Numbered from the stretch's first letter, positions 3,001-48,530 are shown. The stretch is 64,000 nt of DNA from an uncultured virus (IMG/VR IMGVR_UViG_3300003364_000021) (IMGVR_UViG_3300003364_000021:1-64000); one strand, 5' to 3'. Notes: generated from the letters alone by a model not told the origin. Made by a program: numbers and translations.

Positions 3001-3223
3001 AGGCGTAACGAAGGGCGGAGAGCCGAGGTTCGCCGCGTTTGATATGAACATCTGCTCTTGAACTTCGCCGACAGCTAAACAGGAACACCTTGTGCCGGTG
3101 ACGATGCGCTCAACGATTGGAAAATCGTCAGTATTTGCGAGTAATTGAAACTGTTTCGCGGTTGGTTTCGTGGATCTTTGTATAGCCGCACAAAAGCGTG
3201 GCCCATTTACAAGGAGAACAGCT

Positions 3224-3787
3224 ATGACACCCATTAAATCTACGCTCTTCGCGCTCACTTTTGCGATCGCATCCACACCCGCCTTTGCAGATGATCATAC
3301 GGGAAATCCAAAGGTTGGTGGCGCGGAGATGCTTGTTGAACGCAACATCATCGAAAACGCGGTGAACTCTCCTATCCACACGACACTTGTTGCGGCAGTT
3401 CAGGCGGCAGATCTTGTTGACACGTTGCAAGGCGAAGGACCTTTCACTGTGTTCGCACCAGTCAACGATGCGTTCGCCGCCTTGCCCGCTGGTACTGTCG
3501 AAACGCTGCTGCTGCCTGAGAACAAGGCGATGCTGCAAAAAGTCCTGACCGCACATGTCGTCGCAGGTGATTGGTCGGCTGCCGAAATTATCGCCGCCGC
3601 CCGGTCAAGCGCTGACGGGTTTTACCATTTTAACGCGGTGTCTGGTGACGCATTGTCTGCACAGGTGCGCGGCNACAACGTCTACATCTACGACGAAAGC
3701 GGGAACGCTTCACTGGTGACCGTCGCTGATGTTAATCAGTCGAATGGCGTGATCCATGTTGTCAACGCTGTTTTGGTTCCAAAGTAA
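3224..3787 (+). CDS. Fasciclin (FAS1) domain secreted protein
   Basis: Signal peptide; TLVAAV...[12 protein letters not shown] and SNGVIHVV motifs; AAGGAG RBS. Confidence 0.92.
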
Positions 3788-3805
3788 GCCAGCGCTTTGA
3801 AATAC

Positions 3806-3838
3806 GTGACCCTCTCTGCAAAATGCGGCGGGGGTCAC
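3806..3838 (+). terminator. Putative terminator hairpin after fasciclin gene
   Basis: GTGACCCTC...GGGGGTCAC imperfect stem; no clear U tract. Confidence 0.4.
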
Positions 3839-3858
3839 TCCTGCCTGACAGCGCTCCC

Positions 3859-3918
3859 AAAACCCCCGTTGCTGTAAACTAGAGTGTAATTCACTGCAAA
3901 CTTCGCTGTCACGCTACA
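3859..3918 (+). mobile_element. Right end of decayed Mu-like element 0
   Basis: 56/60 identical to 48553-48612; repeated CTGYAAAC-like motifs; ends in CTACA. Confidence 0.85.
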
Positions 3919-3923
3919 ACAGT
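3919..3923. repeat. 5-bp target-site duplication ACAGT (left copy)
   Basis: Lies between ...CA and TG...; identical to 48613-48617. Confidence 0.85.
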
Positions 3924-4330
3924 TGTAGGTTTACACCATTGTTTACAGTGATGCCGGACGACCCGGGACGAGGCTGGAAGAAGGCGGATCACCCAATGAA
4001 ATAAGGGGTTTCGAGCGCCAAGAGGCCCACCGGGACGCGCGAGTGCAAAGTTTGCAGTAAATCGGCAAAACAGCACCAACAGGGCGAAAACGAGCGCGTT
4101 GGTCGGAGCAAGGCCGCGGACGTGGCGAACCCTACCAAACCCCATTAAAACACGGTTTAAGCGCCTCTTGGGTGGGTGCTAAACACACCATTCAAGGGCC
4201 TTTTCCGCATCCGGAACTGGGACCCAAACCGCCCAGTTCTACTTAGCCCTCCCAGATCCCTGCTGCGGCTTTTGAAATCAAAGGCTTGGAGATTCCCGGC
4301 GTAAAGGCGGTAGAAAAAGAAGTGGGACCC
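3924..4330 (+). repeat. Left-end region of prophage 1 with putative transposase-binding repeats
   Basis: GTTTACAC 3929, GTTTACAG 3941, GTTTGCAG 4050; collinear similarity to 48618-49025. Confidence 0.75.
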
Positions 4331-4590
4331 TTTTTGAGATCGAGCCACCGCTGTAGCTGCTGGTGCGAAGCGGGTCCGACCCGCCTTCGAATGACCGGAT
4401 CGAGCCCTTTGTACTGATTGCTGCATCGCGCGCGAATGGCAGCTTTGTGGGGCTTACTTCAACTTTGCCCACAGCCACCGGTTATGATCATCGACAAGCC
4501 AATCCGATGCGTGTTTGATGATGTTCATGCCGTGGGGCTTTGACAACGCGCGCGTTGGCACTGGCCAAGTATTGATAGGGAGGGATTTGA

Positions 4591-5502
4591 GTGATGCGTT
4601 CTTTCTTTGAAAAGCCTGTTGCAGCTTTTTCGCCGAATCCAAGCAATATCAAGCCCCCGACACGTTTCGGCGCAACTATCGGGTTAGTCGTTGTTTTTTG
4701 CGCATTTTTTGTATCAGCTTTCGCTCCAATTCTGGCGCCATTTGAACCAACCCTTAGTGTCGCCACAGCATTTTCACCTGCGGATGAAGAGTTCCTTTTG
4801 GGAACTGATGAACTAGGCCGCGACAGCTTATCAAGATTGATCTATGGCCTCAGAAACCTCGTCTGGGTGGCTTCGGCTACGTCCTTGCTTTCGATCACCA
4901 TTGGTCTTTGCGCGGGCGTCACTGCCATAGTGCTCGGTGGGTGGTTGAACAGAACGATCTTCGTGCTTGCGCACGCGATCTCAACTCTGCCTGCACTGTA
5001 CTGGGGCTTCTTCTTTGGGGCCCTGTTCTACGTCCCTTCAAGCCTAAGCTTGATCATAGCAATTACCATACCGTTTTCGGGACGTGTTTTTCGTTTATGC
5101 AGCAGCGAAACCATGGGAGCGGCGCTCGAAAACGCATATACCGCATCGAAATCAGGTTCAGCGGTTTTGTGGTTTGGCGTTGCGGGGAAATTCGTGCGAC
5201 AGGAAATAGTTTTTCTTGCGGCAATGCTTGGGAATATCTTTAACGCAACGATACTAGTGGTCTTTTCTCTTTCTTTTATAGGTCTGGGGATTCAACCGCC
5301 ACACTCTTCGTTGGGACGGTTTATTGCAGAAAATGCTACTCTCATTTCATTTGGAGACTATACCCCGGCCCTTCCGTTTTTAATCGTGATCCCGTTGGTA
5401 ATGTCGGTCTACATATTGAACGACAATGTCTTGCGCCGTACGGGGCGCAACTTGGTGCCAAGCATCAGAACACATGGTCCAGTCTGGGACCTACAGCGGT
5501 AA
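4591..5502 (+). CDS. Orphan DppC/OppC-like ABC transporter permease
   Basis: APILAPFEP...LLGTDELGRD..SRLIYG and SFIGLGIQPP motifs; multiple TM segments. Confidence 0.75.
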   Translation: MMRSFFEKPVAAFSPNPSNIKPPTRFGATIGLVVVFCAFFVSAFAPILAPFEPTLSVATAFSPADEEFLLGTDELGRDSLSRLIYGLRNLVWVASATSLLSITIGLCAGVTAIVLGGWLNRTIFVLAHAISTLPALYWGFFFGALFYVPSSLSLIIAITIPFSGRVFRLCSSETMGAALENAYTASKSGSAVLWFGVAGKFVRQEIVFLAAMLGNIFNATILVVFSLSFIGLGIQPPHSSLGRFIAENATLISFGDYTPALPFLIVIPLVMSVYILNDNVLRRTGRNLVPSIRTHGPVWDLQR

Positions 5503-5559
5503 CACTTAAAGCGGACTTTCGCGGAGCTTCCGGCGACGGCATCCGCCGGTAGGGCCACC

Positions 5560-5610
5560 TGTTGCAACCAAGTAGAAATGTCAGCCGGTCCGCAAAGTAG
5601 AAATGTCACC
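5560..5610 (+). mobile_element. Possible orphan IS end (ISNCY/IS1202-like)
   Basis: Starts TGTTGC; 14-bp direct repeat AAGTAGAAATGTCA at 5570-5583 and 5595-5608; no transposase follows. Confidence 0.45.
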
Positions 5611-5634
5611 AAGGACGATGACGGGAGCAAAGCT

Positions 5635-6318
5635 TCAGATGCCTAGGTATTTTAGGGCCTTCTTCGCGGTTTTTCTGACCTCAGACTCCGGATGTTCAAC
5701 AAACTCAGAAATCTTATCTGCAGAGGTTTGAGCTTTAAGCTTTCCCAGACATGCAATTGCGCTAACGAGCAAATCGTCATTCTCCAGCAGCCGGATCAGA
5801 TAGGGAATGCTGTCCTCTTTCAGAATTCTCGTCACGCCAAAAGGGAGCTCGGATCTCGAAAACCCGTAACGACGGTCTTCGAGCAAAGAAATAATATCTT
5901 CGACGTCGCCAGCATCGGCAACCACGGACAGAGTATTGCCCATAACCCACCTGAGGTCATCATCACGTTCCGCCCGAAAAAGCCTTATCAACTGGCGGCC
6001 AGCAACACCCCGGGCAAAAGGAGCTGCCAGAGATCTTATGATCCCTTCCTTGTTTTTCTTCACATATGGAAAGTTTAAATGCCTGAGGAGACTTGGGACT
6101 GCCAAAGAATAGTCGGACTCCGAATTGACCAGATCCCAGATCGACGCCACGTGAAGTCCCAGCGCGACCAGATCGGCCACAATGGGCCGTTCATCCTGCG
6201 ACAGCCTGGCCTCCTCCTGTGCTAATCTTTGGTCTTCCTTTTCTATCCTCTCAAGATATTGAGCGTCTCGCGCCAATTCGGTCATAAACGCCTCAGCCGT
6301 CATGGGTTTCCTTGCCAT
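5635..6318 (-). CDS. HEAT-repeat protein
   Basis: Helical repeats ending HPESEVRKTAKKAL; GGAGG RBS before MARKP. Confidence 0.7.
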   Translation of the reverse strand: MARKPMTAEAFMTELARDAQYLERIEKEDQRLAQEEARLSQDERPIVADLVALGLHVASIWDLVNSESDYSLAVPSLLRHLNFPYVKKNKEGIIRSLAAPFARGVAGRQLIRLFRAERDDDLRWVMGNTLSVVADAGDVEDIISLLEDRRYGFSRSELPFGVTRILKEDSIPYLIRLLENDDLLVSAIACLGKLKAQTSADKISEFVEHPESEVRKTAKKALKYLGI

Positions 6319-6740
6319 GATCCCTCCCTTGCAGACCCCTTTACGCTGGACGATACCGCAAGGGACTGGGTTTGCATATGCTCCGTTCCTGACTGGATCG
6401 AGACCGCCTGAGACCGGCCCTCGCCCCCAGCCCTGCGCCCGCCCGCAGCGCCTCCCGGTGCGGCGTCGGGCGGGGCGGGGGCATCTCAATTTTGGGATCG
6501 TCGAATCCGGGCGGTTTTTCGTGTCCGATTGCGGTTGGATTCGGGCCGGTGTCACCTGTCTCGTAAGGGATCATATGTTGTGTAAAATTTGTTTACCTTC
6601 TGGAAACATAAGCCCCATTTGCCGCCTTGTCCGCGCGCGCGCCTAGACGCCCGTTGGCGACTTCCGCAATGGCTGTAGACTCGGATCGCGCGCTCCTTAA
6701 GGGTAAAAATCTATAGATTTAACTCAGAATGGAACGAATT

Positions 6741-6956
6741 ATGCCCGAATATTATGTGAACAAAAATACGCAGATCAACGGCGACAATGAAGTCCACCGG
6801 AGCGATGAGCTGAACTGCCAAAATCCAGCGGCGTACTGGAACAGGGTTGCTTTGGGACTTCACAATGACTGTCATTCGGCAATTAAATCGGCTAAGTCTC
6901 GAGGGTATAACGCAAACGGCTGCTTCTATTGCGCCAACGCGTGTCATACGTCCTAG
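6741..6956 (+). CDS. Small Cys/His-rich hypothetical protein
   Basis: YYVNKN..NGDNEVH...NGCFYCANACHT. Confidence 0.65.
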   Translation: MPEYYVNKNTQINGDNEVHRSDELNCQNPAAYWNRVALGLHNDCHSAIKSAKSRGYNANGCFYCANACHTS

Positions 6957-7050
6957 CAGCGCCTAAATGGCCCGTTACGAGGGCGCACGGCCTCAATGCC
7001 GTGAGCAGTCGGCCGCGGCCCCTCGCCGAGTTTACCTAAGGATCCTGCCC

Positions 7051-7353
7051 ATGACATTGAGGCGCTTGTTCCTAGCCGTCGCGCTGTTCGGAATATCTTC
7101 CACGCTTGGTTTCGCGCAGACGCAATCCACGCCGCATGACGGCTCCTATCAGCTGGCGCAACGCTATGCCTGCGGCCGGACTTGCGGGCAAGTCAGCAGT
7201 TGCCGCGAAGCCGTCTATCAATGGTGCGTTTGTGGCTACAGCCGCGCGGATGGAGATCGTGACGGCGTACCCTGTGAGACAGTCTGCGGCCAAAGCTCCG
7301 CCAGTTCGCTTGCGCGGGTGCGGGGTTTCAAGGACGAGTTCGGGTGTCGCTAG
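7051..7353 (+). CDS. Excalibur calcium-binding domain secreted protein
   Basis: Signal peptide; C...SC.EA...DGDRDGVPCE motif. Confidence 0.8.
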   Translation: MTLRRLFLAVALFGISSTLGFAQTQSTPHDGSYQLAQRYACGRTCGQVSSCREAVYQWCVCGYSRADGDRDGVPCETVCGQSSASSLARVRGFKDEFGCR

Positions 7354-7419
7354 CGGCCCTAAGCTGCCATTGCCCGCTGTTTGAAATGCTAACTGCGGCC
7401 CGTCATTGCGGACTTTCGT
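7354..7419 (+). repeat. Cargo-flanking repeat, type 2
   Basis: Aligns with reverse complement of 48463-48530 (CGGCCC.AAGC..CC.TT...ATGCT...CGTCA...CGGAC.TTCG). Confidence 0.6.
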
Positions 7420-7749
7420 TGCAGCACGAACCCCGAAACACGAAAACAACGTCAAATCAGAAGGTCGAACGACCGCATCAAGCGCCAGTCCCGCGCGAGC
7501 ATCTTAGTCCAAGAGCGCATGATTAAAAAATTCAGGTTCAAACATGAATGTAGGGTTGAAAGTTATAGAGGACGTTCAAGTTGCACGAAGTACTTTTTTC
7601 CCTGTTCGGATTTCTTGCAGGAGCGGTGTATACAACCCCGCAGCATACCCATTTCCAGCAGGTTAAAAGGCAGCTATATTGGCGCTACGCGCCAATACGA
7701 TGTAGTAAATTTTCGTCATTTTCCCTTTCTTAAGCGAGCCTCGGAATAC

Positions 7750-10701
7750 TTACATCGAAGGGATGCTGACATGTCTAGGCCGTCTACGGCCTCGGTTCCT
7801 CGCAGCGTGTTGATAAGCGTTAGGCGCCCGCTTTTCTTGGGCGTTTCCTTCCATCAACCATACAACTTTTTCTCGATTTATGTAATCTGGAAGCTTTGTT
7901 CCAATGGTGCCGACTGCAGAATTTAACGCAGAAAGTGATAGGTTAACTACCCCAGAAAGATCTGCGCCCGAAAAGTCTGTATTTTCAAGATGAGCACCTT
8001 CTAGATCAATGGAGCCCTTCACGCGCTCATTGTCGTATATGTTAAGTGCAAAATGACTTCTGGTGCTTGAAGCATCAATATCGCGGAAACTTGCGTTTCT
8101 TAGATCGCACCCGCGCATACTGACACCCTCAAACATCGCGTTATCAAAGGTCGACTTTGATAGGTCGCATTCCTTCAAATGTGTACCAATTAAACTTGCT
8201 TTTACTCCATCCGTATATTCGAGGCTGGCCCCTTTTAGGTTGGACCCTATTAATGTGGACCATATGATCGTCGTTGACCTAAGATCGGCACCTTCTAAGT
8301 TTGCTCGGCTCAAACTTTGGTTCCAAAGGCGTTGCTCCGCAAGATTGATCCTGCGGAGGACCTTTACGACTATTTTTTCGTCGGTGAGACCCATTTCGTT
8401 GAGAAGTGATTTCGTGCTAAGCCTATCGGTATTTGGCCAATCGATATTCACGGTCCAAGGTGTATTAAACTCTATGGTACTCCAATCTCCTATCGGGATA
8501 GCCGTAGCCAACGAGGAAGTGCATGCCATGAGCGCAGTAATCGCACAACGATGTCGGAAAACCAGATCGGTCCATTGTGCTTCGGGGGCCATTTTATGAA
8601 CAGAAAAACCATTACTGAGTGTCCACCCCAGCAATTCAGTCAAAGCATTTTTAGGGCCGAGCGCAGTCTCGGACGTTAACTTCTCACGCGCCTCATCATA
8701 AAGAAAATCTATGATCTCAGTTGTCAGTTCACCAGATCCAATAATCTGACTCCATCTCTGCTCAACGTCTTCAGCTTCCGCGTCTTCCAATTCTTTTGCA
8801 ACCTTCAGGGCGTGCGATAACAGACCACGAGCAGCAAGATATTCGCCAAAGCTCTTATGAATAAATTCGAATCCGCTGTCCGCGTCGCCTTGCCCAGCAC
8901 GGGTATGAATGTTGAGAGCCACTGATTTAAGGTTTGCCGCAGGAAAGTCCTTAAATTTCTTTTCACGCCCAAGGTGCAATTTACGAATTTGGCGAAAGTC
9001 GTCTTCATCTCCTGTGCGCCCGTTTCCACGCCAAGCAGCAATGCCAAGACATTCCATCAGCTCAAAGAATAGCTCCTCATTTACACCCGCGGCGACGAAG
9101 TGATCTTTCTCTTTGTTTCGTTCGAATATTTTCTGGAGGATATCCTCATAAACAACGTTCTTATTATCAGCCGCTATTTCCCAATCGTCACTACTGTATT
9201 TTGAGATCACCAAAAGGTGCAATAGAAGGGGCTCAACATTAAGCTCTCTCATGCTGTCAGCGGTAACTGCAGCTGGTATTTTCTCTGGATCAAGATCCTT
9301 GAGAGTCGCCCATTTCCGCCAATAGGTTGCCCGCTGATCATTACTCATCAGGCCATCAGGGTCTTCGATTTCATCATCAGCCTGTGAGGGCATCATACAT
9401 GTTTCGTTAGTCATCTTTGCGATCGGCGCAACGTTGAGCATGTGCTGCACCGGAATATTGGAAGCCTTCATTGCGCCTTCACAAGCCAGATTACGACCCA
9501 GCACAAGTGCCCGAATAGGGGTGCCATCTGTGTTTAGAGGTGAAAGCATTAGTTTAAGGGCAAGCAGAAGTTCTCTGGCGTAGCGCTCCCCGTCTTCTTC
9601 TTTAGTTGATAGCTCGTCCAGTCCATCGAAGATGATTAGAATAGGTAACTCATCTGTTTTGCGCCAATCCAGGGGACTTCCGGGCAAGCCCGGGCTGCCG
9701 TGTTTGCCTGTCGAGGTATCGCGGCGGTCGACATAGCGCGCTATATCATCATGTAGTGAGCCAGACAGAACCATGTGCTGAAGCTGTATGAATAGTACGC
9801 GATGAACGCCCTGTTCAATCACCTCATGTGCGAAGGCGCGCGCGAAAGAGGACTTCCCACTTCCCGGCCCCCCGGTAACTACACGGACAGGATCTTGTTG
9901 AGCATTTCCAGCCATCCAAGTATGCGTCGCCTTATGTAGCTCAGCTACATGTGCGGTCTTACGCTCTGTTTCAGAACCATCCTCTTTTTGGAATTTTTCA
10001 ATTTGGTGCCAAAAGCACCGAGGCGGCAGGTAGACAGCTTCAAGCGGAATGACTTCGGCCTCATCTGGAGAGAATATCGGTGCATCCGTATATTGATGGG
10101 AAACCCAATATGCATGGCGTGCCCAATGTCCGTCGCGTCGAGCACTTTCGCCCCCAAGTCCTGTAAGCCCATCTTCGAGAACCCGAAAATAGCTGGGATC
10201 CTCGCAGAGTGTTCGATTTGAACCAGTTCGCAAGGCACGTCTGAAACGTTCCTCAAGCGTATCGATTTCGAGATCCATACTGGTTGTCGCCTTCAGGAGC
10301 ATGGCTCCGAGAGCTTGATGCGCTTTATTGAACAGAGGCGAAAGACCTGGGTTTGTCAGCGTAAGGGCATCAAGCTCTTGTCCATCGAACTGCGCCGCAG
10401 TCTCGAGAAATTCACTGACCGCTTCATCTTTCTTCCCTGACAGTGGAGCTTTGATGCGCTCAGCCTTTAGCACATCACTAACCGCGTAACTGATCGTCTT
10501 AAAAGCCCAGATCCAAGCCCGTTGCCCCGGCTCGTCCTGTGCCGTGCCCGAAAGTGCGCTGAACCCGGATTTCAGATTTGAGAGAACATTCGGAATGTTT
10601 GGACCGGCGGGGCTTAGTGCTTCCAGAACCGCCAAGATACCATGAAACCCTGCGTCTATGTAATTGCGTTTGTTGTTTGGAGGAGTGAGTGGAATGGCCA
10701 T
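7750..10701 (-). CDS. NACHT-type STAND NTPase with C-terminal pentapeptide repeats
   Basis: Walker A GGPGSGKS, Walker B LIIFDGLDE, PLLL, FEFIHKSFGEYLAA, A(N/D)LxGA repeats. Confidence 0.85.
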   Translation of the reverse strand: MAIPLTPPNNKRNYIDAGFHGILAVLEALSPAGPNIPNVLSNLKSGFSALSGTAQDEPGQRAWIWAFKTISYAVSDVLKAERIKAPLSGKKDEAVSEFLETAAQFDGQELDALTLTNPGLSPLFNKAHQALGAMLLKATTSMDLEIDTLEERFRRALRTGSNRTLCEDPSYFRVLEDGLTGLGGESARRDGHWARHAYWVSHQYTDAPIFSPDEAEVIPLEAVYLPPRCFWHQIEKFQKEDGSETERKTAHVAELHKATHTWMAGNAQQDPVRVVTGGPGSGKSSFARAFAHEVIEQGVHRVLFIQLQHMVLSGSLHDDIARYVDRRDTSTGKHGSPGLPGSPLDWRKTDELPILIIFDGLDELSTKEEDGERYARELLLALKLMLSPLNTDGTPIRALVLGRNLACEGAMKASNIPVQHMLNVAPIAKMTNETCMMPSQADDEIEDPDGLMSNDQRATYWRKWATLKDLDPEKIPAAVTADSMRELNVEPLLLHLLVISKYSSDDWEIAADNKNVVYEDILQKIFERNKEKDHFVAAGVNEELFFELMECLGIAAWRGNGRTGDEDDFRQIRKLHLGREKKFKDFPAANLKSVALNIHTRAGQGDADSGFEFIHKSFGEYLAARGLLSHALKVAKELEDAEAEDVEQRWSQIIGSGELTTEIIDFLYDEAREKLTSETALGPKNALTELLGWTLSNGFSVHKMAPEAQWTDLVFRHRCAITALMACTSSLATAIPIGDWSTIEFNTPWTVNIDWPNTDRLSTKSLLNEMGLTDEKIVVKVLRRINLAEQRLWNQSLSRANLEGADLRSTTIIWSTLIGSNLKGASLEYTDGVKASLIGTHLKECDLSKSTFDNAMFEGVSMRGCDLRNASFRDIDASSTRSHFALNIYDNERVKGSIDLEGAHLENTDFSGADLSGVVNLSLSALNSAVGTIGTKLPDYINREKVVWLMEGNAQEKRAPNAYQHAARNRGRRRPRHVSIPSM

Positions 10702-10745
10702 GTTTAACCCTTTACTTTGGGTCATTGTAGCCGTCGGTGGAATAT

Positions 10746-10818
10746 CGGCAAGGTCCGGTTTCCGCCCCGGGTGCTGTCGAGGTCCCGGGCGCAGCGAAAG
10801 TCGGCTTTCCCGCCCCTG
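10746..10818 (-). repeat. Cargo-flanking repeat, type 1 (two tandem copies)
   Basis: GGGCGGGAAAGCCGACTTTCGC and GGGCGGAAACCGGACCTTGC, similar to 3010-3034 and 45290-45314. Confidence 0.6.
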
Positions 10819-10856
10819 TTGTCGAAGCATCGGTAATATTCATCTTAACGAAGCCC

Positions 10857-11516
10857 TCACCACGCATGCGCTGACCACACGATCTCGCCCAGGACGCGCA
10901 TGCGGTTCATGTCGGGGCCACGGCGGGTTTCGGTCGGGTGGATCGGGTTGTCGGAGGTCAGCACCATCATCTCGTTGTCGACCAGGTCGAGGCGCTTGAC
11001 GCGGGCGCTGCCATCGGTGTCGACGAAGGCGTAGACGTGGCGGTTGCGGATCGTGGTGCGGCGCTCGTCGATCATGACAAGGTCGCCGTCGTTCAGGGTC
11101 GGGGCCATGCTGTCACCCGCAACGGTGAGCAGACACGCCTGCGCAGGTGAAATACCCCGCTCGCGCAACCAGTTCTGGCGAAAGGCCAGTGCGCCTTGCA
11201 GGCTGACATCGCCGTTCAAGGCCCCTGCCCCCGCCGCCAGCCGCGCGTCAACGCGCGGGATTGCGGCGAAATCTTCGTGGTCGATCTGGGTAGTGTATAC
11301 AGCCCCCACTTCGCGCGGCGGACCAAAATATAGCTCTAGATCAAGTACTTCGGCTAGCCGCTCCAGTGAAGCCCAATTGTATCGTTTGTCGCCGTCGCGC
11401 TTCATTCGAAAGTTCTTAATCAAAGACGGATGACCGACCGCGAGCCGCGAGGCTTTCGCGTCTGAATAGCCCTTCTTTTTCAGGGCCTCATCGATCTGGT
11501 TAAGAATCACATCCAT
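10857..11516 (-). CDS. CI-like repressor with S24 peptidase domain
   Basis: N-terminal HTH-like region, AG cleavage motif (LAAGAG), GDSM and VKRL catalytic motifs; divergent from early operon. Confidence 0.9.
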   Translation of the reverse strand: MDVILNQIDEALKKKGYSDAKASRLAVGHPSLIKNFRMKRDGDKRYNWASLERLAEVLDLELYFGPPREVGAVYTTQIDHEDFAAIPRVDARLAAGAGALNGDVSLQGALAFRQNWLRERGISPAQACLLTVAGDSMAPTLNDGDLVMIDERRTTIRNRHVYAFVDTDGSARVKRLDLVDNEMMVLTSDNPIHPTETRRGPDMNRMRVLGEIVWSAHAW

Positions 11517-11527
11517 CTGGTCACGAT

Positions 11528-11594
11528 AGCCAGTAATGGCCAATTCGTAAACATAAAGCTACTACAGGCTTGTATTGCCGGGCTAGTAGTGGCT
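11528..11594. promoter_or_regulatory. Prophage 1 switch region with three putative operators
   Basis: AGCCAGTAATGGCC 11528, AGCTACTACAGGCT 11557, GGCTAGTAGTGGCT 11581. Confidence 0.55.
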
Positions 11595-11605
11595 ATACTC
11601 TCCTC

Positions 11606-11857
11606 ATGAAACAGAGAGACGCCCTTATAACACTCGCCACCACGCTCGCCGCGCATCGCGGGGTCACGCACTATGCGATCTCCATGCGCGCCTTGGGTAA
11701 GGGCGATTTCTTCAAGAAAATGATCGAGTGCGGCTGGGATTGCCGCACTGCGACAGCCGAGCGCTTGCTCGCTTGGTTCGACGAGAATTGGGACCGGGAC
11801 CTCGAATGGCCCCGCGACATCCCCCGTCCATCCGCCAAACAGGAGGATGCCGCATGA
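11606..11857 (+). CDS. Cro/Ner-position small DNA-binding protein
   Basis: First gene divergent from repressor. Confidence 0.6.
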   Translation: MKQRDALITLATTLAAHRGVTHYAISMRALGKGDFFKKMIECGWDCRTATAERLLAWFDENWDRDLEWPRDIPRPSAKQEDAA

Positions 11858-12024
11858 GCCCGCGCCCCGACCCCGAAGGCAACCTTCCCCCCGGAAGCGG
11901 CTTTGCGATAGCCCTGCTGCTCGCCCTCGTCTTCTGGGCCGTAGTCGCTGCGGGCCTGTCTGTCGCGGTTCTGCGCCAAGGTGCCGCCCCTGAAACACCC
12001 CCTTCAACAGAGGATTTAATGTGA
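11854..12024 (+). CDS. Small membrane protein
   Basis: Single TM segment; homolog at 50336. Confidence 0.55.
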   Translation: MSPRPDPEGNLPPGSGFAIALLLALVFWAVVAAGLSVAVLRQGAAPETPPSTEDLM

Positions 12025-12236
12025 TGCGGTTATCCGATCTCATTCCCGATGCCGGGCAGTTGCAGGCTGAGATCGCGGCCATCCCGCAGGCGCAGCGCGT
12101 GGCGCTGGCTTTGCAGTTGGTGCGCGACATCGACGAGCCGTGCTGTGCGCTGCCGCTGATGCGCCTCAGTCGCTTGGCCGAGGATCATGAGTTGTCGATC
12201 CGCAAGGAAGCGTTCGTTCTGGAGCGTGCCCGATGA
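12024..12236 (+). CDS. Phage early hypothetical protein
   Basis: Near-identical homolog at 50544. Confidence 0.65.
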   Translation: MRLSDLIPDAGQLQAEIAAIPQAQRVALALQLVRDIDEPCCALPLMRLSRLAEDHELSIRKEAFVLERAR

Positions 12237-12421
12237 TCCGCCGCCTTGCCCATAAATTTCGTCTCCGCGCGCGTGCTGGCCTGTGCGCTGCGCGGTCACT
12301 GCGCCCCGGCTGTGCCCAATCTGCTTGCTCCGGCCGGGGCGTTTTTTCTGTCATTGGCGATGTAGTGGGGGTTATGGCGCTGTTCGTCCTGCTCTTTGCC
12401 GTCGCGAGTTTCGGAGGGTGA
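12233..12421 (+). CDS. Phage early hypothetical membrane protein
   Basis: Overlapping stop/start; homolog at 50768. Confidence 0.5.
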   Translation: MIRRLAHKFRLRARAGLCAARSLRPGCAQSACSGRGVFSVIGDVVGVMALFVLLFAVASFGG

Positions 12422-12426
12422 GCGGG

Positions 12427-12687
12427 ATGAGCCTGCATGTGCAAAGATGGGGCCATGGATACGCCGTTTTCGACGGTAAGGAGCGCTTATCTGGCGCGTT
12501 CAGCAACCGCGATATCGCCCTGCGCGCCCAAGACCGGATGGAGAACGAGACAGCCAAATCCAAGCACGCCCGTAACCGCCCCTGCCTGACTTGCGGCACC
12601 GAGTTCTGGTCAACGGGATTGGGACACCGCATGTGCGGCAACTGCCGCACCAATTGCGCCGGGCTCGACGCCCAGATGGTGGGCTAA
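12427..12687 (+). CDS. Zn-finger hypothetical protein
   Basis: CLTC...CGNC; homolog at 50961. Confidence 0.7.
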   Translation: MSLHVQRWGHGYAVFDGKERLSGAFSNRDIALRAQDRMENETAKSKHARNRPCLTCGTEFWSTGLGHRMCGNCRTNCAGLDAQMVG

Positions 12688-15643: not shown

Positions 15644-15661
15644 CAAGAAAAGGAGAGCAGC

Positions 15662-17894: not shown

Positions 17895-17895
17895 A

Positions 17896-18546: not shown

Positions 18547-18550
18547 GGGA

Positions 18551-19652: not shown

Positions 19653-19672
19653 GACGGGAAAGGGGGGCACCC

Positions 19673-30644: not shown

Positions 30645-30645
30645 A

Positions 30646-32131: not shown

Positions 32132-32179
32132 GGGGCTTTAACGCGCCCTTCAACGCCACTTTGAAAGAGAGTTTACCCC

Positions 32180-32868: not shown

Positions 32869-32869
32869 C

Positions 32870-40344: not shown

Positions 40345-40347
40345 CGC

Positions 40348-41089: not shown

Positions 41090-41122
41090 AACCACGAACA
41101 CCCAAACCAAAAGGAAACTGAC

Positions 41123-41745: not shown

Positions 41746-41767
41746 CATCACGTAAGGAAGCCCAAAG

Positions 41768-43237: not shown

Positions 43238-43530
43238 TGGACGAGATGAAGACCTTCGAGAAAAACACCTATTCCGCCGTCATCACCTTTCTCAGGAAGG
43301 ACAGCACCGCGCCCGATCTCAGCGGGGCCGCTGTAGAGGCATGGGCGCTCGGCGCTGGCCCCACCATCCCCTTGGGGGTGAGTGTCCTGGACGGCATGGC
43401 CGGCGTGGTGCGCGTGTTCTGGCCTGCGGAGACATTTGCGGCGGGGCTCTACGAGGTCCAGCTGCGCGCCTCGAAAGGCGGCAAGACGGAAACCTATGCG
43501 GCGCGCCTGACAGTCGCCCGGTCGATCTGA
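43237..43530 (+). CDS. Hypothetical protein (BppU-N-like)
   Basis: DLSGA.V...G.V...G.YEVQL pattern. Confidence 0.5.
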   Translation: MDEMKTFEKNTYSAVITFLRKDSTAPDLSGAAVEAWALGAGPTIPLGVSVLDGMAGVVRVFWPAETFAAGLYEVQLRASKGGKTETYAARLTVARSI

Positions 43531-43701
43531 AGACATCCCCCAATGTGTGGGGATTACCCGGTGGCCGTGAGCGGCCGCCCTACAGGAGGCCCCGAGCGTG
43601 CTGGAGGGCACGCCCGGGCACGCGGGGCCAGTCACCAAACATACCCCCGCCGACCAGAAACACCTCATGGCCGCTCCCTGCCCCAAGGGGGCGGCGGGAC
43701 T

Positions 43702-43920
43702 ATGAGGCGATTCGATTTGGAAGGTCTAGAACTGCGTTGCTGCGCATGCAGCCGTTTGCTATTTAAATATCAGAGAGGGGCGCAAATATCCGGCGTCTCG
43801 ATCAAATGCCCGCGCTGCCGGGCGATGAATATCCTGAGGCCAAGAGCCCTTCCCCAAACGCGCGATGCGCAGAGAGAAGGAGCCAAACTTGACCAGATCG
43901 ACCACACTCCCGAAACCTGA
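43702..43920 (+). CDS. com: Com-family Zn-finger translational regulator
   Basis: RCCACSRLL...IKCPRC..N.LRP; Mu com position. Confidence 0.8.
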   Translation: MRRFDLEGLELRCCACSRLLFKYQRGAQISGVSIKCPRCRAMNILRPRALPQTRDAQREGAKLDQIDHTPET

Positions 43921-44071
43921 GCTGCCGCCCGGTGCGCCGGGCCTGCCCAAAGGCGTCCGCTACCGGCGGCAATATGGCGTCATCGTCCTCCTCGAGGACG
44001 AGGTGGCTCAAATCAACGCCTTCGGCCGGTTGCGCCGCCAAGGCTTCAAATGCCGCGTGGTGGTCACATGA
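43889..44071 (+). CDS. Small hypothetical protein coupled to ATPase-GNAT
   Basis: GAAGGAG RBS plus TTG start; QYGVIV..EDE..Q...F..L...G.KCRVV. Confidence 0.6.
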   Translation: MTRSTTLPKPELPPGAPGLPKGVRYRRQYGVIVLLEDEVAQINAFGRLRRQGFKCRVVVT

Positions 44072-45177
44072 AGCTCGCCATCCACCACGCCAGCCCCATC
44101 CCGGATACCTACCGCGCCGCCCGGGTCTCCAGCCTCTTCAACGTCGAGGGCGACGCGGATTTCCGCATCGAGGTCGAGGCCGATCTGGCAGCACAGCCCT
44201 GGCAGATAGGCCTCATCGTCGGCCCCTCTGGCAGCGGGAAATCCTCGCTCGCCCGCGAAGCCTTCGGAGCGGAGCTTGACCCGCGCCCGTGGCCCGAGGG
44301 CGCGCTGATCGACGCGATTGACCCCGAGGGCGAATTCGACGCCGTCGCGGCCGCCCTCTCCGCCGTGGGCCTCGGCACGGTGCCCAGCTGGCTGCGCCCC
44401 TATCCCCACCTCTCCACCGGCGAGCAGTTCCGGGCCGAGCTCGCGCGCATTCTGGCCGAGCGGCCGAGCTTTGCCATTCTCGACGAGTTCACCTCGACCA
44501 TTGACCGGCGCGTGGCCCAGATCGGGGCGGCAGCCTTTGCCAAGGCATGGCGGCGGGGCTCTGGCCAGTTCGTCGCCGTCACCTGTCACGAGGACGTCGT
44601 GTCCTGGTTGCAGCCCGATTGGGTGATCGACACCCGCCGGGCCGAGTTTCGCTGGAGGCGTCTTCGACGGGCACCCCGCATTGCCATGGACATTCACCAG
44701 ACAGACGGCTCCTTCTGGCCCGCCTTTGAGCCGCATCACTACCTGAAGCTGCCCCGCATGATCGCGGCCAATTACTACGTGGGCTTCGTCGACGGCGCAC
44801 CGGTGGCGCATCTGGCCGTCTCGACCCGGCCGGGGCTGGTCGAAGGCCGCGCCTGCCGCCTTGTCGTCATGCCTGAGTGGCAGGGCGCGGGGCTGGGGCT
44901 GCGCTTTCTCAACGAGGTTTGCGCGCTCTGGCGGCGCGGCGTGAACCGCTACGACAAACCGATGCCGATGCTGTTTCACACCTCGCATCCCGGCCTCGCC
45001 GCCGCCCTGCGCCGCGATCCCCTCTGGGCACAGGTTTCGGCCATCCTCTATGCCGAGGCCAAGGAACGCAGCATGAAGACCCTCGCCGCCGCCCGGGCAC
45101 GCAAAGGCCTCAAACCCGCCGGGAGCGGCTACGGCGGGCATTTCCGCGCGGTGCAGGGCTTTCGGTATGTCGAGTGA
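44068..45177 (+). CDS. ABC-type ATPase fused to GNAT acetyltransferase (mom position; putative DNA modification)
   Basis: GPSGSGKS, LSTGE, ILDEF; HHYL; RLVVMPEWQGAGLG acetyl-CoA motif. Confidence 0.8.
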   Translation: MKLAIHHASPIPDTYRAARVSSLFNVEGDADFRIEVEADLAAQPWQIGLIVGPSGSGKSSLAREAFGAELDPRPWPEGALIDAIDPEGEFDAVAAALSAVGLGTVPSWLRPYPHLSTGEQFRAELARILAERPSFAILDEFTSTIDRRVAQIGAAAFAKAWRRGSGQFVAVTCHEDVVSWLQPDWVIDTRRAEFRWRRLRRAPRIAMDIHQTDGSFWPAFEPHHYLKLPRMIAANYYVGFVDGAPVAHLAVSTRPGLVEGRACRLVVMPEWQGAGLGLRFLNEVCALWRRGVNRYDKPMPMLFHTSHPGLAAALRRDPLWAQVSAILYAEAKERSMKTLAAARARKGLKPAGSGYGGHFRAVQGFRYVE

Positions 45178-45289
45178 GGGGGGTGTTAAAGGGGCGTTGA
45201 AACAGCCCCTCATGTTCCTTCCCAATGATCGGTGTCAGGCGGTAGCCGATCGAGATCAAACTCCCAGCTAGCCGACGCAGCACGAGCAG

Positions 45290-45314
45290 GAAGGGCGGAA
45301 AGCGGAAGTTCGCT
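45290..45314 (+). repeat. Cargo-flanking repeat, type 1
   Basis: 21/25 identical to 3010-3034. Confidence 0.6.
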
Positions 45315-45504
45315 ATGGGTGCGAGGCCTGAAAACCATAGTTTCTAGGCGGATATTCATTTGGCCAATCTCTTATGCCTTCGTGTTGGGCCAGCGATTGG
45401 CCCTCGACTTGGACTTGATGAGCAATCAGTCGCGACGTTTTTCTGATGTGCAACGGTCAAATTTGGTTTAGGGTCCCCCGAAAAGGCAGCGGCGAATTCG
45501 ACCA

Positions 45505-46401
45505 ATGTACACAGATAGAACTCGCGACCACCACAAGGATGCGGCGATTGCTCGCCTTTTTTCGGCCGGCGTTGTTAGAGAACTTGCTGAAAAAGGCAGC
45601 TCTGCCAAGTTTAGCTCGTTGGTAAATCAAGCTGAACTATTCGAACTTCAAGAAGTTCGCACCGTCGGTGACGCGTTTGACTTTGGCTTCGCTCAATTAC
45701 GCCGAAGTGGCCTCCGAAATGAATACATTTATCAGTCGGCTATAGTTCAAAACGTGCTCTTAGGTAAACATTCCCTGAAAACAGCCAGTATGGTGAGAGA
45801 GTTTCGAACTGGAGCTAGCAGAGCGGATGTTGTCATATTGAACGGCACATCTACAGTCTATGAGGTTAAATCCGAACGTGACAGTCTCCAGAGACTTGAG
45901 AAACAACTAGAAGACTACGCCGATATATTTGCTCGTACGTATGTAATTGCTTCAGAACGTCACATCAACGCGATAAAAGAGCTCGCGCCGCTTCACGTAG
46001 GCGTTATGTATCTGAAAAGATGGAATAGCATAAGCACAGTTAGAGAAGCCGTCGATCGGCCAGACGAAGTTAAACCACTCAGCATTCTGGGGGCTCTTCG
46101 AAGAACTGAGGCAATTCGTATTCTCAAACACATAGGCAAGCCTGTACCTTCCGTGCCAAACACTCAGATGTTTAGCGCGCTTTCAGAACTCTACGAACGC
46201 CTTGATCCAAGAGAAGTCCATGACGCAATGGTTCAGGTGCTCAGGCAGAGCCGAACACAACATTCTTTCCAGAGACTCGTCGAAGATCTACCTTTATCGT
46301 TGCATGCCGCCGCATTGATGTACAACTTAAGGCTAAGTGACGGGGCAAAACTGGTGCAAGCCATTAAAACTCCAATCGAACAATCAATATTTTGGAGTTA
46401 G
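45505..46401 (+). CDS. sce7726-family protein (PD-(D/E)xK-like)
   Basis: RNEYIY, EF....RAD.V.LNG....YEVKSERD.L.RL..Q. Confidence 0.8.
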   Translation: MYTDRTRDHHKDAAIARLFSAGVVRELAEKGSSAKFSSLVNQAELFELQEVRTVGDAFDFGFAQLRRSGLRNEYIYQSAIVQNVLLGKHSLKTASMVREFRTGASRADVVILNGTSTVYEVKSERDSLQRLEKQLEDYADIFARTYVIASERHINAIKELAPLHVGVMYLKRWNSISTVREAVDRPDEVKPLSILGALRRTEAIRILKHIGKPVPSVPNTQMFSALSELYERLDPREVHDAMVQVLRQSRTQHSFQRLVEDLPLSLHAAALMYNLRLSDGAKLVQAIKTPIEQSIFWS

Positions 46402-46409
46402 GATGTTAA

Positions 46410-47357
46410 ATGTACTTTCCATACTTTCGCGGTAAGCAATTTGAGCTCATCACTATTCGAGATACCGCAGAATTGCTGGCGAAGGCTGGTTTCATACCCA
46501 TAATTGAACCCGTAAAAGAAGCACTGAAGGGGTTGACCCGTGCGCTTGACGCGGTTTGTGAAAGCGGTGGGCATGCGATCGTAATAGTGAATCCTCAACA
46601 TGGAAGCTTAGCTGGAAATGGAGCCGCAATATCGACTTTTCTCAAGGAAGGCTATCTTGAGACCGACAACGTAAGCGCTGGCATCTTATTGACGGATACG
46701 ATGACGGTAATAGATGCCATGACGCTTTTTGAAGCTCATACAAATCATAGGCCGTATTTTATTCACTCGGGCTTTCTGCAGGAAAACGGCCTCGCAGAAA
46801 AACTTGGGGACGAGCTCAGTCATACACGACATGTCTTCATCGAACAGGCTAGCCCTGTATTATACCGAAAGAAGTTCAGCAGTGCTTCTCGAGTGCTGCT
46901 TCGGGATGGATTCAACAAACAGCGGAATGCTAGTTATCCTGCTGTTGAGCTTTTTTCAGATTTGCATGTAACATTTAATTCCGAGTTGGGTTTGAATGGT
47001 TTTGGAGACTTCCTAACTGTCGGGGATGACTATAGTGAGACAGGTGGACCTGCTTATGCCGTCGCCATTCACATGACGTTCATTGATCCAGACAAAGACG
47101 ATCAGATGTACGTGCGCCATTTTGTGTCAGATTCAAATAGCACTCCAACGGATCCTGCTGGAAAGTTCGCAGAAGCGCTCTCTAAGCTGGTCACGAAGTT
47201 CAATCACGGAACATCAAACCTGTTTCATGGTAAGGCTTTATCTGAGTTCCTAGAGTTGCATGCAAAACAACACTTTCCAGGGCTGGGTCAGGTTAAAAAA
47301 CTTTCGATGATCCATCACATTGAGACACTGGCAGACTATTTTTCTGAGGCGAATTGA
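46410..47357 (+). CDS. sce7725-family (beta-protein-like) protein
   Basis: MYFPYFRGKQFEL, PIIEPV, GFGDF...GGPAYAVAIH, FPGLG..KKLS..HH. Confidence 0.85.
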   Translation: MYFPYFRGKQFELITIRDTAELLAKAGFIPIIEPVKEALKGLTRALDAVCESGGHAIVIVNPQHGSLAGNGAAISTFLKEGYLETDNVSAGILLTDTMTVIDAMTLFEAHTNHRPYFIHSGFLQENGLAEKLGDELSHTRHVFIEQASPVLYRKKFSSASRVLLRDGFNKQRNASYPAVELFSDLHVTFNSELGLNGFGDFLTVGDDYSETGGPAYAVAIHMTFIDPDKDDQMYVRHFVSDSNSTPTDPAGKFAEALSKLVTKFNHGTSNLFHGKALSEFLELHAKQHFPGLGQVKKLSMIHHIETLADYFSEAN

Positions 47358-48421
47358 TGCCAAATAAATGCTGCCCAAACTGTTTTGGGGACCGTGGACT
47401 CGAAAAACACCTGTTTCAATTTCTGGCTACAGAATTGGCGAAAGGGGATTGTAATTATTGCGGAGACCCTTCGGACAAACTTGTTGAACCGTCGGAGCTT
47501 TCTGATGTTTTTGAGCTGCTAGTCGAATCTTATGAAGAAGCTGAAGGCGGTGTAAGTCTTGTGGCAAACTTCAAAAAGGACTGGGGGCTTTTCTCTCATG
47601 CCAAAATGGACGAAGCACACGCCAAAGAACTACTTTCCGATATTTTAGATGATGGAGAGATCGTTCGAAAGTCGTTTAGACCCTTGACCGCGCCGGATGA
47701 CTCTAAGGTCGGTGATTGGCTTGAACTTCGTCAAGAACTTCGCTTCAAGAATAGGTATTTTCTAGACGAAAAAATTAAGGAAGAACGGTTGAAGCTTTTG
47801 CTCGAGTTCTTGCTTTCAGCACCGCTAGAAAAGATCTGGTTTCGAGCCAGGATCTCGCCTGATAATCAGCCTTTCGATGCCCAATCGATGGGAGCGCCAC
47901 CAAAAGGTTCCGCTTCCCACGGAAGAGCCAACCCCGCAGGCATTCCGTATCTCTATCTTGCATCTGATGAGAACACAGCGATTTCGGAAATACGCCCTCA
48001 TACGGGTGAATTCGCGACCGTTGCAGAATTTGAGCTGCGTGAAGGACTTACAATCGTCGATTTACGATCACCTAAGACACTCGTCTCTCCTTTTATCTGT
48101 GGATCTTCCGATGAGATTGTTCAGCTTAGGGCAGACTTGCCGTTCCTAGAAAGTCTGGGCCACGAACTCACTCGTCCGGTGCTGCCCCGCAGCGCCGCAA
48201 CTGACTACGTTCCAAGTCAATATCTCTGCGAGTTTATAAAGAAAAAAGGATTTGACGGTGTACTTTATACGAGTTCTGTGGGGACGGGAAAGAACTTGGC
48301 CCTCTTCGATACCGAAGCGGCAAATTGCATACGAGTATCCGTTTTTAGTGTCGCTAGCGTTGCAGTCACCGCTCATGAGTTTCGCACACAGGTTCGCCCG
48401 TTGGAGCGCGTTGAAAATTAG
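47357..48421 (+). CDS. RES-domain protein with Cys-rich N-terminal domain
   Basis: CCPNC..CNYC; FRAR, GRAN...YLYL, EIRP, Y.PSQ, DGVLYTSS. Confidence 0.88.
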   Translation: MPNKCCPNCFGDRGLEKHLFQFLATELAKGDCNYCGDPSDKLVEPSELSDVFELLVESYEEAEGGVSLVANFKKDWGLFSHAKMDEAHAKELLSDILDDGEIVRKSFRPLTAPDDSKVGDWLELRQELRFKNRYFLDEKIKEERLKLLLEFLLSAPLEKIWFRARISPDNQPFDAQSMGAPPKGSASHGRANPAGIPYLYLASDENTAISEIRPHTGEFATVAEFELREGLTIVDLRSPKTLVSPFICGSSDEIVQLRADLPFLESLGHELTRPVLPRSAATDYVPSQYLCEFIKKKGFDGVLYTSSVGTGKNLALFDTEAANCIRVSVFSVASVAVTAHEFRTQVRPLERVEN

Positions 48422-48462
48422 AAATAGATCTGGGGCGCGATAGGCTCGGTTTTACACTCTCG

Positions 48463-48530
48463 GCGAATGTCCGGTGTGACGTTCCGGGTCGCAGCATCTG
48501 GGTTGATCGACGAACGGTCGCTTTGGGCCG
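48463..48530 (-). repeat. Cargo-flanking repeat, type 2
   Basis: Reverse complement aligns with 7354-7419. Confidence 0.6.

Follow-up and report, generated by a model that had tools for sequence, protein, structure and literature searches.

In the REP/BIME families of enterobacteria and pseudomonads, short palindromic units with a stable stem-loop occur in many dispersed, mostly extragenic copies per genome, forming mosaics in which the units face either way and share a conserved linker. In other bacteria, REPs are targets of IS110 relatives. Integron attC sites are degenerate but fold as imperfect-palindrome hairpins, and in an array each cassette, usually of a single gene, carries one site at its 3' end, all in the same orientation. 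In Mu-like phages, the plasticity regions or morons, as in the Mu mom region and in Pseudomonas phages of the D3112/B3 type, are accessory genes at fixed places among conserved core genes; in the Pseudomonas transposable phages these places fall in stretches that are low in GC and lack homology, and the excerpted text of that study mentions no boundary repeats (PMC4378225). For the Mu-like phage Ab30, transposition hot spots are reported to lie beside BIMEs (PMC5977238).

The window analysed here comprises 64,000 nucleotides from an uncultured virus. An earlier note had described two degenerate motifs, type 1 and type 2, bracketing unrelated cargo genes, and had proposed that they are attC-like boundary sites of a cassette-capture system special to phage ends; each of the motif copies was found where the note had placed it, though with uneven statistical support. 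We conclude that the repeats round the accessory genes belong to a family of short repeats dispersed over Rhodobacteraceae genomes, and that in the window they mark the seams of two cargo slots within a Mu-like transposable prophage; an integron-like capture system is not supported.

Prophage 1 (P1) is a Mu-like transposable prophage of 44.7 kb (3924-48612). It has a Mu-type DDE transposase, a MuB-like AAA+ protein, 5'-TG...CA-3' inverted ends and a 5-bp target duplication. The ends read TGTAG...CTACA, and the pentamer ACAGT, read directly, stands on both flanks (3919-3923 and 48613-48617). The left-end block (3924-4335, plus strand) starts TGTAGG and is 71% identical to that of prophage 2; the right end (48553-48617 with the right ACAGT copy, plus strand) forms with the left end, TGTAGGGTTACAC, an imperfect inverted repeat. 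Comparison of right-end loci shows a conserved right-end block, ...GTCACGCTACA, beyond which the sequences diverge. The start of the core (10857-16459) was assigned by Pfam: it holds the S24 repressor gene (10857-11543, minus strand), the MuA gene (13520-15643; PF02914 at E 2e-46, plus Mu DNA-binding domains) and its neighbor, the gene for the MuB-like AAA+ ATPase (15662-16459). A ParB-like gene lies in the same stretch. Further genes are a com-like gene (43543-43920) and the last core gene, a mom-like gene encoding an ATPase fused to a GNAT domain (44050-45177, plus strand). Upstream of P1 lies the remnant of an older phage, element 0, with a mom-like gene fragment (2836-3001, plus strand; residues about 280-344 by tblastn, 89% identical to 44908-45073) that is also found in Roseovarius sp. 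217 (L020), and with the conserved 60-bp right-end block, ending ...GTCACGCTACA (3859-3918, plus strand). Downstream, the left-end block of prophage 2 (P2; 48618-49029, plus strand) is followed by no left cargo; its MuA gene lies at 52519-54645. That no cognate recombinase is visible, as the earlier note had it, is thus true for the motifs but not for the phages, since the window encodes two Mu-type DDE transposases, one with an adjacent MuB-like ATPase gene.

The left slot of P1 runs from the left-end block to the repressor gene and the right slot from mom to the right end. Each lies immediately within one end of the phage, one slot reaching 3.4 kb and the other 6.5 kb, and their cargo includes defence-type genes. 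Cargo in this position is carried along when the phage transposes through MuA/MuB, and does not lie outside the mobile unit awaiting capture. As in the Pseudomonas transposable phages, the accessory places coincide with low-GC, non-homologous stretches; unlike in the D3112/B3 type, the slots here are directly inside both ends and have host-type interspersed repeats at their edges. In Roseovarius sp. 217, the related phage has CACGC on both flanks and cargo in both slots.

Types 1 and 2 proved to be two arrangements of one short and highly degenerate unit, U, which reads about GCGAA.GTCCGCTTT. The canonical element, of about 65 bp, consists of U1 ending GAGCCC, a linker containing GATGCTGC, and U2; type 1 is a U1 unit with a CCGCCC end instead of GAGCCC. 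The best canonical copy in the window lies at 4385-4453 on the plus strand, with its U1 ending GAGCCC at 4409, and corresponds to what the earlier note had listed as a related piece at 4388-4452. Homology of Roseovarius sp. 217 and of genomes G255 and G004 to the window ends at 4407-4409. A solitary U unit, GCGAAAGTCCGCTTT, lies at 5506-5522 on the minus strand (16.1 bits with the U2 matrix), and a further U1-like unit at 7465-7485 on the plus strand. Degenerate type-2 elements are found downstream of the NACHT gene (7352-7421, minus strand) and 21 bp before the right-end block of P1 (48461-48532, plus strand); the U2 part of the latter, together with the right end, is 84% identical to the R. 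mucosus locus L018.

These type-2 copies differ in strength. An HMM trained on 11 elements from outside the window (10 chromosomal ones and the phage copy in L018, the latter unaligned with the rest) finds 4387-4448 at E 1.2e-10, whereas 7354-7419 and 48463-48530 are partial matches only (E 0.33-4.7). Compared pairwise, the three copies are modestly similar: z is 2.6-4.3, and 5, 8 and 54 of 2000 shuffles score as high. This similarity ranks 21-195 of 1614 windows in a scan of the contig and does not stand out, and the copies at 7354 and 48463 are, as a pair, not above background. Of the three, only the piece at 4388-4452 is a strong copy.

Among the type-1 copies, those at 3010-3034 and 45290-45314 carry most weight. 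The former, annotated on the plus strand, reads as a U1-variant unit on the minus strand and turns its CCGCCC end towards the mom fragment; the latter forms, with a U1-like unit at 45222-45241, the core-side border of the right slot (45222-45314, plus strand). The two agree at 21 of 25 positions and are the sole matches at up to 6 mismatches on both strands of the 80.8-kb contig; they are also reciprocal best non-self windows (score 33, next best 24). Within the 300 bp that follow the mom homology, the best-matching 25-mers agree at 21 positions, while the maximum in mononucleotide shuffles is 19 and none of 100 reaches 21. Type 1 does follow mom in both element 0 and P1, as had been noticed, but the two occurrences are not independent: they are homologous by descent, lying in the right arms of two related phages. 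The border at 45222-45314 is common to L018 and in part to L019, and the sequences diverge after it; L020 and L019b part from P1 directly after GATCGAGCCC. The other type-1 copies, two tandem U1-variant units about 50 bp apart next to the NACHT gene (10746-10818, plus strand), have their CCGCCCC ends towards the repressor gene. In pairwise scans they (10746-10768 and 10790-10818) are at background, with scores of 22-25; 10794-10808 is nevertheless the contig's top U2 score, 17.3 bits, with a weight matrix trained solely on chromosomal copies of other genomes. A seawater contig matches the window up to 10807 and then reads GGAGCCC, as in canonical U1. Since two of the three type-2 copies and the NACHT-adjacent type-1 copies are individually at background, part of the pattern rests on weak members.

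The cargo is varied. The right slot of element 0 holds a fasciclin-domain gene (3170-3787, plus strand; PF02469, E 4e-29), whose chromosomal homologues, 70-77% identical, occur in many Roseovarius genomes; here a type-1 copy is present on one side only. In the left slot of P1 are genes for an ABC permease (4591-5502, plus strand), a HEAT-repeat protein (5635-6555, minus strand) and an Excalibur-like protein (6967-7353, plus strand), the last two with weak Pfam matches below the curated cut-off, and for a NACHT-like NTPase with pentapeptide repeats (7750-10830, minus strand), the true start of which may be the ATG at 10701. This slot also contains other short dispersed repeats, one (7431-7519) with four matches in G251 and another (5557-5633) with a single match in G232. 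The right slot holds an operon of sce7726-family, sce7725-family and RES-domain genes (45505-48421, plus strand). It has no match in 61 Roseovarius genomes, its relatives are at most 60% identical, and 0 of 61 loci are labelled Rhodobacteraceae. The modules hold one to four genes on both strands, and units stand on both sides of modules and inside them, in both orientations.

Within the window, the units are confined to accessory-gene slots, one in the element 0 remnant and two inside P1. At the level of the repeat family, weight matrices trained outside the window were applied to 10 cargo slots (29.1 kb) and two phage cores (66.1 kb). The slots contain 13 matches of at least 14 bits, against 2.1 ± 1.4 in dinucleotide shuffles (a 6-fold excess), and the cores contain 2, against 2.1 expected, which is chance level. 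The earlier observation that core genes lack the motifs was borne out, the best core match of model R1 having an E value of 0.48. At 12 bits or more, 13 of the 23 slot matches sit within 150 bp of a slot border, a zone making up 10% of slot length, and four of the 10 slots have no match (that of element 0, L022, L036 and the small L010 slot). Cargo-less relatives are without the element, both at right ends (L015, L021, L006) and at left ends (P2, L010). Repeats at the borders of variable accessory modules recur in independent related phages with different cargo, although several border elements are homologous between phages, so that independent events are fewer than borders.

The same elements are dispersed in the chromosomes of Roseovarius and other Rhodobacteraceae, and are therefore not special to phage ends. 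With 150 candidates scored in each of five Rhodobacteraceae genomes, R1 gave at least 9, 19, 5, 13 and 68 matches at E≤1; unrelated loci amounting to 437 kb gave none. All seven copies inspected in chromosomes lie between ORFs, and inverted units stand upstream of U1 in L070-L072. One unit end, GAGCCC or, in type 1, CCGCCC, recurs as a breakpoint. In sp. 217, all three chromosomal copies examined lie at homology breaks relative to related genomes, a figure without a matched control. Genome G195 carries at least 10 copies of a 155-bp derivative, nearly identical and sharply bounded; all eight aligned copies end exactly at GAGCCC, show no clear inverted repeat or target duplication, and have left flanks resembling U2. 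In the same genome, 6 of 6 full IS110-family copies abut the GAGCCC end, which indicates site-specific use of that end.

This family is one of short interspersed mosaic repeats, BIME-like or MITE-like, dispersed in Rhodobacteraceae chromosomes. It resembles REP/BIME in its many, mostly extragenic copies, in its mosaic of short units in both orientations with a conserved linker (alignments A4 and t2train), and in serving an IS110-family element as a specific insertion target. It differs in that U is no palindrome with a stable stem-loop: in 10 folds covering all copies and both strands, z ranged from -1.14 to +0.81 against 200 shuffles each, no better than shuffles. Nor did we find a REP-associated Y1 transposase flanked by units; PF01797 genes are present in two of the five genomes, and the three above the family cut-off that were inspected have no U unit in their flanks, the inverted repeats there looking IS200-like. 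In contrast to the BIMEs reported beside Ab30 insertion sites (PMC5977238), the elements here lie inside the phage, in cargo slots. The 155-bp derivative is MITE-like in its near-identical, sharp-ended copies, but no terminal inverted repeat or target duplication is evident in it and no parent element shares both its ends. We infer that the repeats are neither attC-like sites, nor Mu end sites, nor a phage-specific system.

Could the units still be sites of a dedicated recombinase, encoded elsewhere in the host, that excises and inserts repeat-bounded modules at phage ends and chromosomal islands, in line with the earlier note's model? Several observations would fit. Breakpoints fall at a fixed base at the GAGCCC end, which behaves like a preferred joint, as in attC. 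In flexible regions of G195, elements cluster between groups of genes, one every 2-4 kb. Inverted units with the GAGCCC/CCGCCC end outward flank both the NACHT module and the sce7726 operon, and the permease segment (4419-5541), which has a unit at either edge, is 95-99+% identical to short contigs in another organism's run and diverges after 5541, 19 bp past the unit. The IS110-family insertions also point this way, but there the element is the inserted DNA itself, not a carrier of cargo. Furthermore, the inverted units on either side agree at no more than 15 of 24 bases, too few to be significant with such latitude in placing them, unit orientation at the permease is opposite to that at the other modules, and the sce7726 operon with these borders was not found elsewhere. 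Like attC sites, the units are degenerate and border variable accessory genes, but they lack the hairpin, the modules are multi-gene and in both orientations, and the family is dispersed genome-wide rather than in one array. The 80.8-kb contig has neither IntI nor attI, and no IS110-type transposase or tyrosine recombinase that could act on the units; PF00589 is absent from all six frames of this chromosome fragment, beyond which a distant gene may lie, and every control genome gave a match. Assembled contigs of public runs showed no joint at a unit. Such a system thus appears unlikely. The claim of boundary sites survives in the recurrent border position and in the unit-free cargo-less relatives; the likeness to attC does not.

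We consider it rather improbable that the units have a regulatory or architectural function at the slot edges, as insulators, RNA elements or sites bound by a host or phage protein, and are kept by selection with no part in gene movement. Their positions are conserved beside the last core genes in several phages, and their usual chromosomal setting is between genes; however, promoter- and terminator-like sites show no excess over shuffles and no consistent coincidence with units, the elements have no Rfam match, RNAalifold on 7 elements found only 5 pairs (-2.2 kcal/mol), cargo-less relatives manage without units, and the units are highly degenerate. It is improbable, too, that the units arrived passively with captured chromosomal DNA in slots that tolerate junk, their border position being an accident of shared ancestry. 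The other short dispersed repeats of the left slot, the chromosomal relatives of the fasciclin cargo and the border units shared by descent would agree with this, but the crowding of matches into the border-nearest tenth of slot length and the recurrence of the breakpoint at the same base do not, and the sce7726 operon has no close relative in Rhodobacteraceae, yet family-specific units flank it. A chance likeness among GC-rich intergenic sequences, or an origin as relics of the end sites that Mu transposase binds, would suit the background pairwise scores of most copies but is very improbable, as models trained outside the window recover the sites with the 6-fold slot excess, and as the real ends, TGTAG...CTACA, carry different internal repeats, CTGTAAAC and CTGCAAAC, to which the motifs, 52 to about 6900 bp inside the termini, are dissimilar. 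On the same grounds, type 1 was rejected as a candidate for the inverted ends of P1.

The best explanation of the whole, which we hold with moderate confidence, is that of dispersed mosaic repeats edging the slots of a Mu-like prophage, with slot splicing at the seams. The repeats form seams of accessory modules and may, to judge from their positions, be hot spots of recombination. Foreign segments would be spliced into the slots, or exchanged within them, at the repeats, the GAGCCC/CCGCCC end of the U unit being the recombination-prone joint. Splicing might proceed through short homology shared among slots, co-resident prophages and chromosomal islands, or through site-specific enzymes using that end, as the IS110-family element does in one genome. 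A bolder proposal, which we regard as unlikely, is that the GAGCCC/CCGCCC end is a true site-specific recombination joint across Rhodobacteraceae. Perhaps with the help of IS110-type guided recombinases or of some enzyme not yet recognised, chromosomal islands and both end slots of Mu-like phages would trade repeat-bounded modules there, and the phages would carry these on by transposition and infection. If this were true, it would amount to a cassette system without an integron integrase.

The window forms the first 64 kb of a single 80.8-kb contig and carries two co-oriented Mu-like prophages, preceded by the remnant of a third (element 0). Mu-type DDE transposase genes lie at 13520-15643 (prophage 1) and 52519-54645 (prophage 2), the first directly followed by an AAA+ MuB-like gene, and the two prophage cores are 75-89% identical. 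A gene for a ParB N-terminal domain (12591-13523) is found directly 5' of the MuA gene of prophage 1. The GC content is 46-55% at about 3-11 kb and about 45-49 kb, against 62-67% in the cores, and the low-GC stretches contain the cargo: fasciclin, an ABC permease, HEAT, Excalibur-like and NACHT/pentapeptide proteins and a sce7726/sce7725/RES operon. The fasciclin gene contains a single ambiguous base (N), at about 3700-3730. The sce7726 operon had no match among 61 Roseovarius genomes, and elsewhere no relative exceeds 60% identity. The sce7725 protein has only distant relatives, whose loci lack the repeat elements described below and are uninformative on cassette movement. No tRNA genes were found in the window. 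The last core gene (mom-like, 44050-45177) codes for an ABC/AAA-type ATPase part fused to a GNAT part, matches the PADLOC models mad3 and mad8, and is often truncated or interrupted among relatives (fetched loci L004/L018, L006 and L007/L019, and element 0). The mom fragment of element 0 begins 5 bp past the end of a BTP/PACE-family efflux gene (2393-2830), directly 5' of which is a guanidine-II riboswitch (35.4 bits, above the gathering score; whole region 2327-2830).

Relatives were fetched with the mom-like and repressor proteins. In the Roseovarius genomes a conserved 60-bp block follows the mom gene and terminates in ...GTCACGCTACA, beyond which the sequences diverge. The left end, TGTAGGGTTACAC..., is an imperfect inverted repeat of the right end. 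A scan with the right-end pattern returned 22 loci: 13 from IMG/VR, all of them the window's own locus, and nine independent ones. The window has two such junctions, in which a right end (last base 3918 or 48612) and a left end (first base 3924 or 48618) are separated by ACAGT. These ends are most simply read as a prophage 1 of 44,689 bp (3924-48612) with a 5-bp target duplication, inserted in the spacer that separated element 0 (right end) from prophage 2 (left end). Because the two junctions are homologous blocks, a whole junction may instead have been duplicated. The relative in Roseovarius sp. 217 has CACGC on each flank, with non-phage DNA as its right flank, and in one seawater contig the right end of element 0 runs directly into non-phage sequence.

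The phage ends thus map outside the cargo, and all of the cargo is therefore inside the transposable unit, in two slots between core and phage end (4336-10856 on the left and 45178-48552 on the right in prophage 1; the right slot of element 0 is at 3002-3858). We conclude that the cargo belongs to the Mu-like phage and moves with it. One of the motifs described below, type 1, was considered as a candidate for the inverted ends of prophage 1 or for its MuA sites, which would put the termini at about 10823 and 45287; this was rejected, as seven right-end loci gave the real ends. The true ends of these prophages are thereby available, and up to 10 kb of cargo would escape prophage callers whose calls are limited to core genes.

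Where Mu-like prophages adjoin (3859-3929 and 48553-48623 in the window; loci L019, L020 and L036), the spacer is of 5 bp (ACAGT twice, CACGC, ACAAC) or 0 bp. New phages seem to insert precisely beside the right end of a resident, contrary to the target immunity of Mu. The prophage arrays of five genomes finish at a single conserved host site (...cccctttgcaatagttctgaaatag), and partial relics of right ends (CACGCTACA repeats) stand before it. Two mini-elements were also found. In the 2.26-kb element (L019, oriented, 5793-8051), 64 bp of left end are followed by a truncated mom, a single cargo gene and a right end; in the 3.5-kb element (L006, 432-3923), a left-end block is followed by a type-2 element, a gene for 591 residues, a type-1 unit, a truncated mom and a right end. 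As both retain two ends, they could in principle be mobilised by a helper phage.

The earlier note had described two degenerate motifs around the cargo, type 1 (3010, 45290 and near NACHT) and a type 2 of about 67 bp (7354, 48463), and every copy that it listed was found in place. The observation was confirmed in part. The type-1 copies at 3010 and 45290 match at 21 of 25 positions; each is the other's best match in the contig, and locally they exceed all 100 shuffles. Those on the NACHT side are weak in pairwise comparison. Since the copies at 3010 and 45290 occupy equal positions in two related phage right arms, they are homologous, not independent; element 0 resembles a prophage 1-type arm lacking about 217 bp between mom and the motif. 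The two type-2 copies aligned in the note are likewise weak (pairs rank 21-195 among 1614 windows), but what it had called a related piece, at 4388-4452, is the only strong full-length element. The canonical element, of about 65 bp, comprises a unit U1 ending in GAGCCC, a linker and a second unit, U2. An HMM built without the window copies recovered 4387-4448 with an E-value of 1.2e-10, and its next four matches all fell at sites named in the note (E 0.33-1.2). The sequence model of the repeat, R1, found in the window only the three slot copies of its own training set (next best, E 0.39). Type 1 is the unit U with CCGCCC replacing GAGCCC and scores 11.7-17.3 bits with chromosomal matrices. A seawater contig follows the window to 10807 and continues with GGAGCCC. 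Inverted units flanking the sce7726 operon match at 15 of 24 bases, which is not significant given the freedom of positioning. The left slot also contains two other short dispersed repeats: 7431-7519, found at four places in the genome G251 (85-86% identity) and in short contigs of a seawater run, and 5557-5633, found at one place in the genome G232 (86%), with a doubled AAGTAGAAATGTCA.

Two type-2 copies compared by BLAST with five Roseovarius genomes had only weak matches (best E 0.0135), so that a profile was required to reveal the family. A 22-nt U1 pattern had 34 matches in 21 of 201 Rhodobacteraceae genomes, against one control match; 13 of the 34 are in a single genome (G195), and several single matches appear to fall in coding regions. 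The chromosomal copies have the layout ...GCGAAGGTCCGGTTTGAGCCC, then A.TTTGACCGATGCTGC, 6-9 nt and CGAATGGCAGCTTTGGG. By a rough count, with 150 candidates scored per genome, R1 has 5-68 copies (E ≤ 1) across five genomes, and it had no match in 437 kb of unrelated DNA. The type-1 pattern, in five Roseovarius genomes, had 19 matches against 4 for its reversed control, about five-fold. We conclude that the motifs are members of a host-wide interspersed repeat family. Literature searches on repetitive extragenic palindromic sequences in Rhodobacteraceae and on miniature inverted-repeat elements in Roseobacter returned nothing describing it.

Within the phage, this family is confined to the accessory slots and concentrated at their borders. 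In ten slots, taken from the window and from its phage relatives (29.1 kb in total), weight matrices trained outside the window gave 13 matches of at least 14 bits, where dinucleotide shuffles gave 2.1 ± 1.4; the two cores (66.1 kb) had 2 matches, against 2.1 expected. Thirteen of the 23 slot matches of at least 12 bits sit within 150 bp of a slot border. The element is absent from cargo-less relatives, both at right ends (L015, L021 and L006, with about 120 bp from mom stop to terminus) and at left ends (prophage 2 and L010). Two facts weigh against this pattern: four of the ten slots have no match, and several border elements are common by descent.

The GAGCCC end of the unit recurs as a joint. 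In G195, a 155-bp derivative is present in at least ten near-identical copies, and all eight aligned copies finish exactly at GAGCCC. A 1.38-kb IS110-family element in the same genome (loci L142-L147) abuts the GAGCCC/GGGCTC end of U1 in six of six full copies, the insertions lying between U1 and the linker of a type-2 element. In the left slot, prophage 1, sp. 217 (L020) and a MAG (L019b) have in common a U1 segment of 75 bp that follows the left-end block, and the three sequences separate immediately after GATCGAGCCC; the homology that sp. 217, G255 and G004 share with the window stops at 4407-4409. In element 0 and in a 3.5-kb R. lutimaris mini-element, the junction of the truncated mom is no more than 10 bp from a type-1 unit. 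The comparison in sp. 217 covered three chromosomal copies alone, and each of them sits at a homology break relative to four other Roseovarius genomes.

The only direct hint of module exchange comes from the segment 4419-5541 (linker, U2, permease and U), which short contigs from the run of another organism contain at 95-99+% identity before diverging 19 bp beyond the U unit. In an independent groundwater run, one contig of low depth agrees with the window as far as 5607, a point past the solitary U unit and short of the HEAT gene, and then has 178 unrelated letters; it may represent a structural variant. Parts of the window left uncovered in other runs do not count as absence. Run X12 was rejected as a shorter variant: the 60% of sampled words found reflects low coverage, its short contigs having few or no differences from the window.

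The note's interpretation of the motifs as integron-like sites is not supported: no copy folds better than shuffles, no consensus structure was detected, and neither a tyrosine recombinase nor an IS110 transposase was found in the contig. Rfam searches at gathering and E-value thresholds returned nothing at the motifs, promoter and terminator scans showed no excess, and the flanks of the REP-type Y1 transposases inspected had no U unit. In the most likely mechanism, the units would be seams where segments were joined through short homology common to slots, tandem prophages and chromosomal islands; joining could also involve enzymes that cut at the GAGCCC end. A role as seams or recombination hot spots is plausible. 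Accessory "regions of genomic plasticity" are described in Pseudomonas Mu-like phages (PMC4378225), and transposition hot spots adjoining BIMEs for phage Ab30 (PMC5977238); among the papers retrieved in further searches, no title or abstract dealt with boundary repeats. If the seams are recombination-prone, this would explain how, in one marine Mu-like phage family, defence-type cargo (including the NACHT NTPase and the sce7726/sce7725/RES operon) is swapped at two fixed slots while the 34-kb core remains collinear, and would tie the turnover of phage cargo to a repeat family marking the variable parts of host chromosomes.
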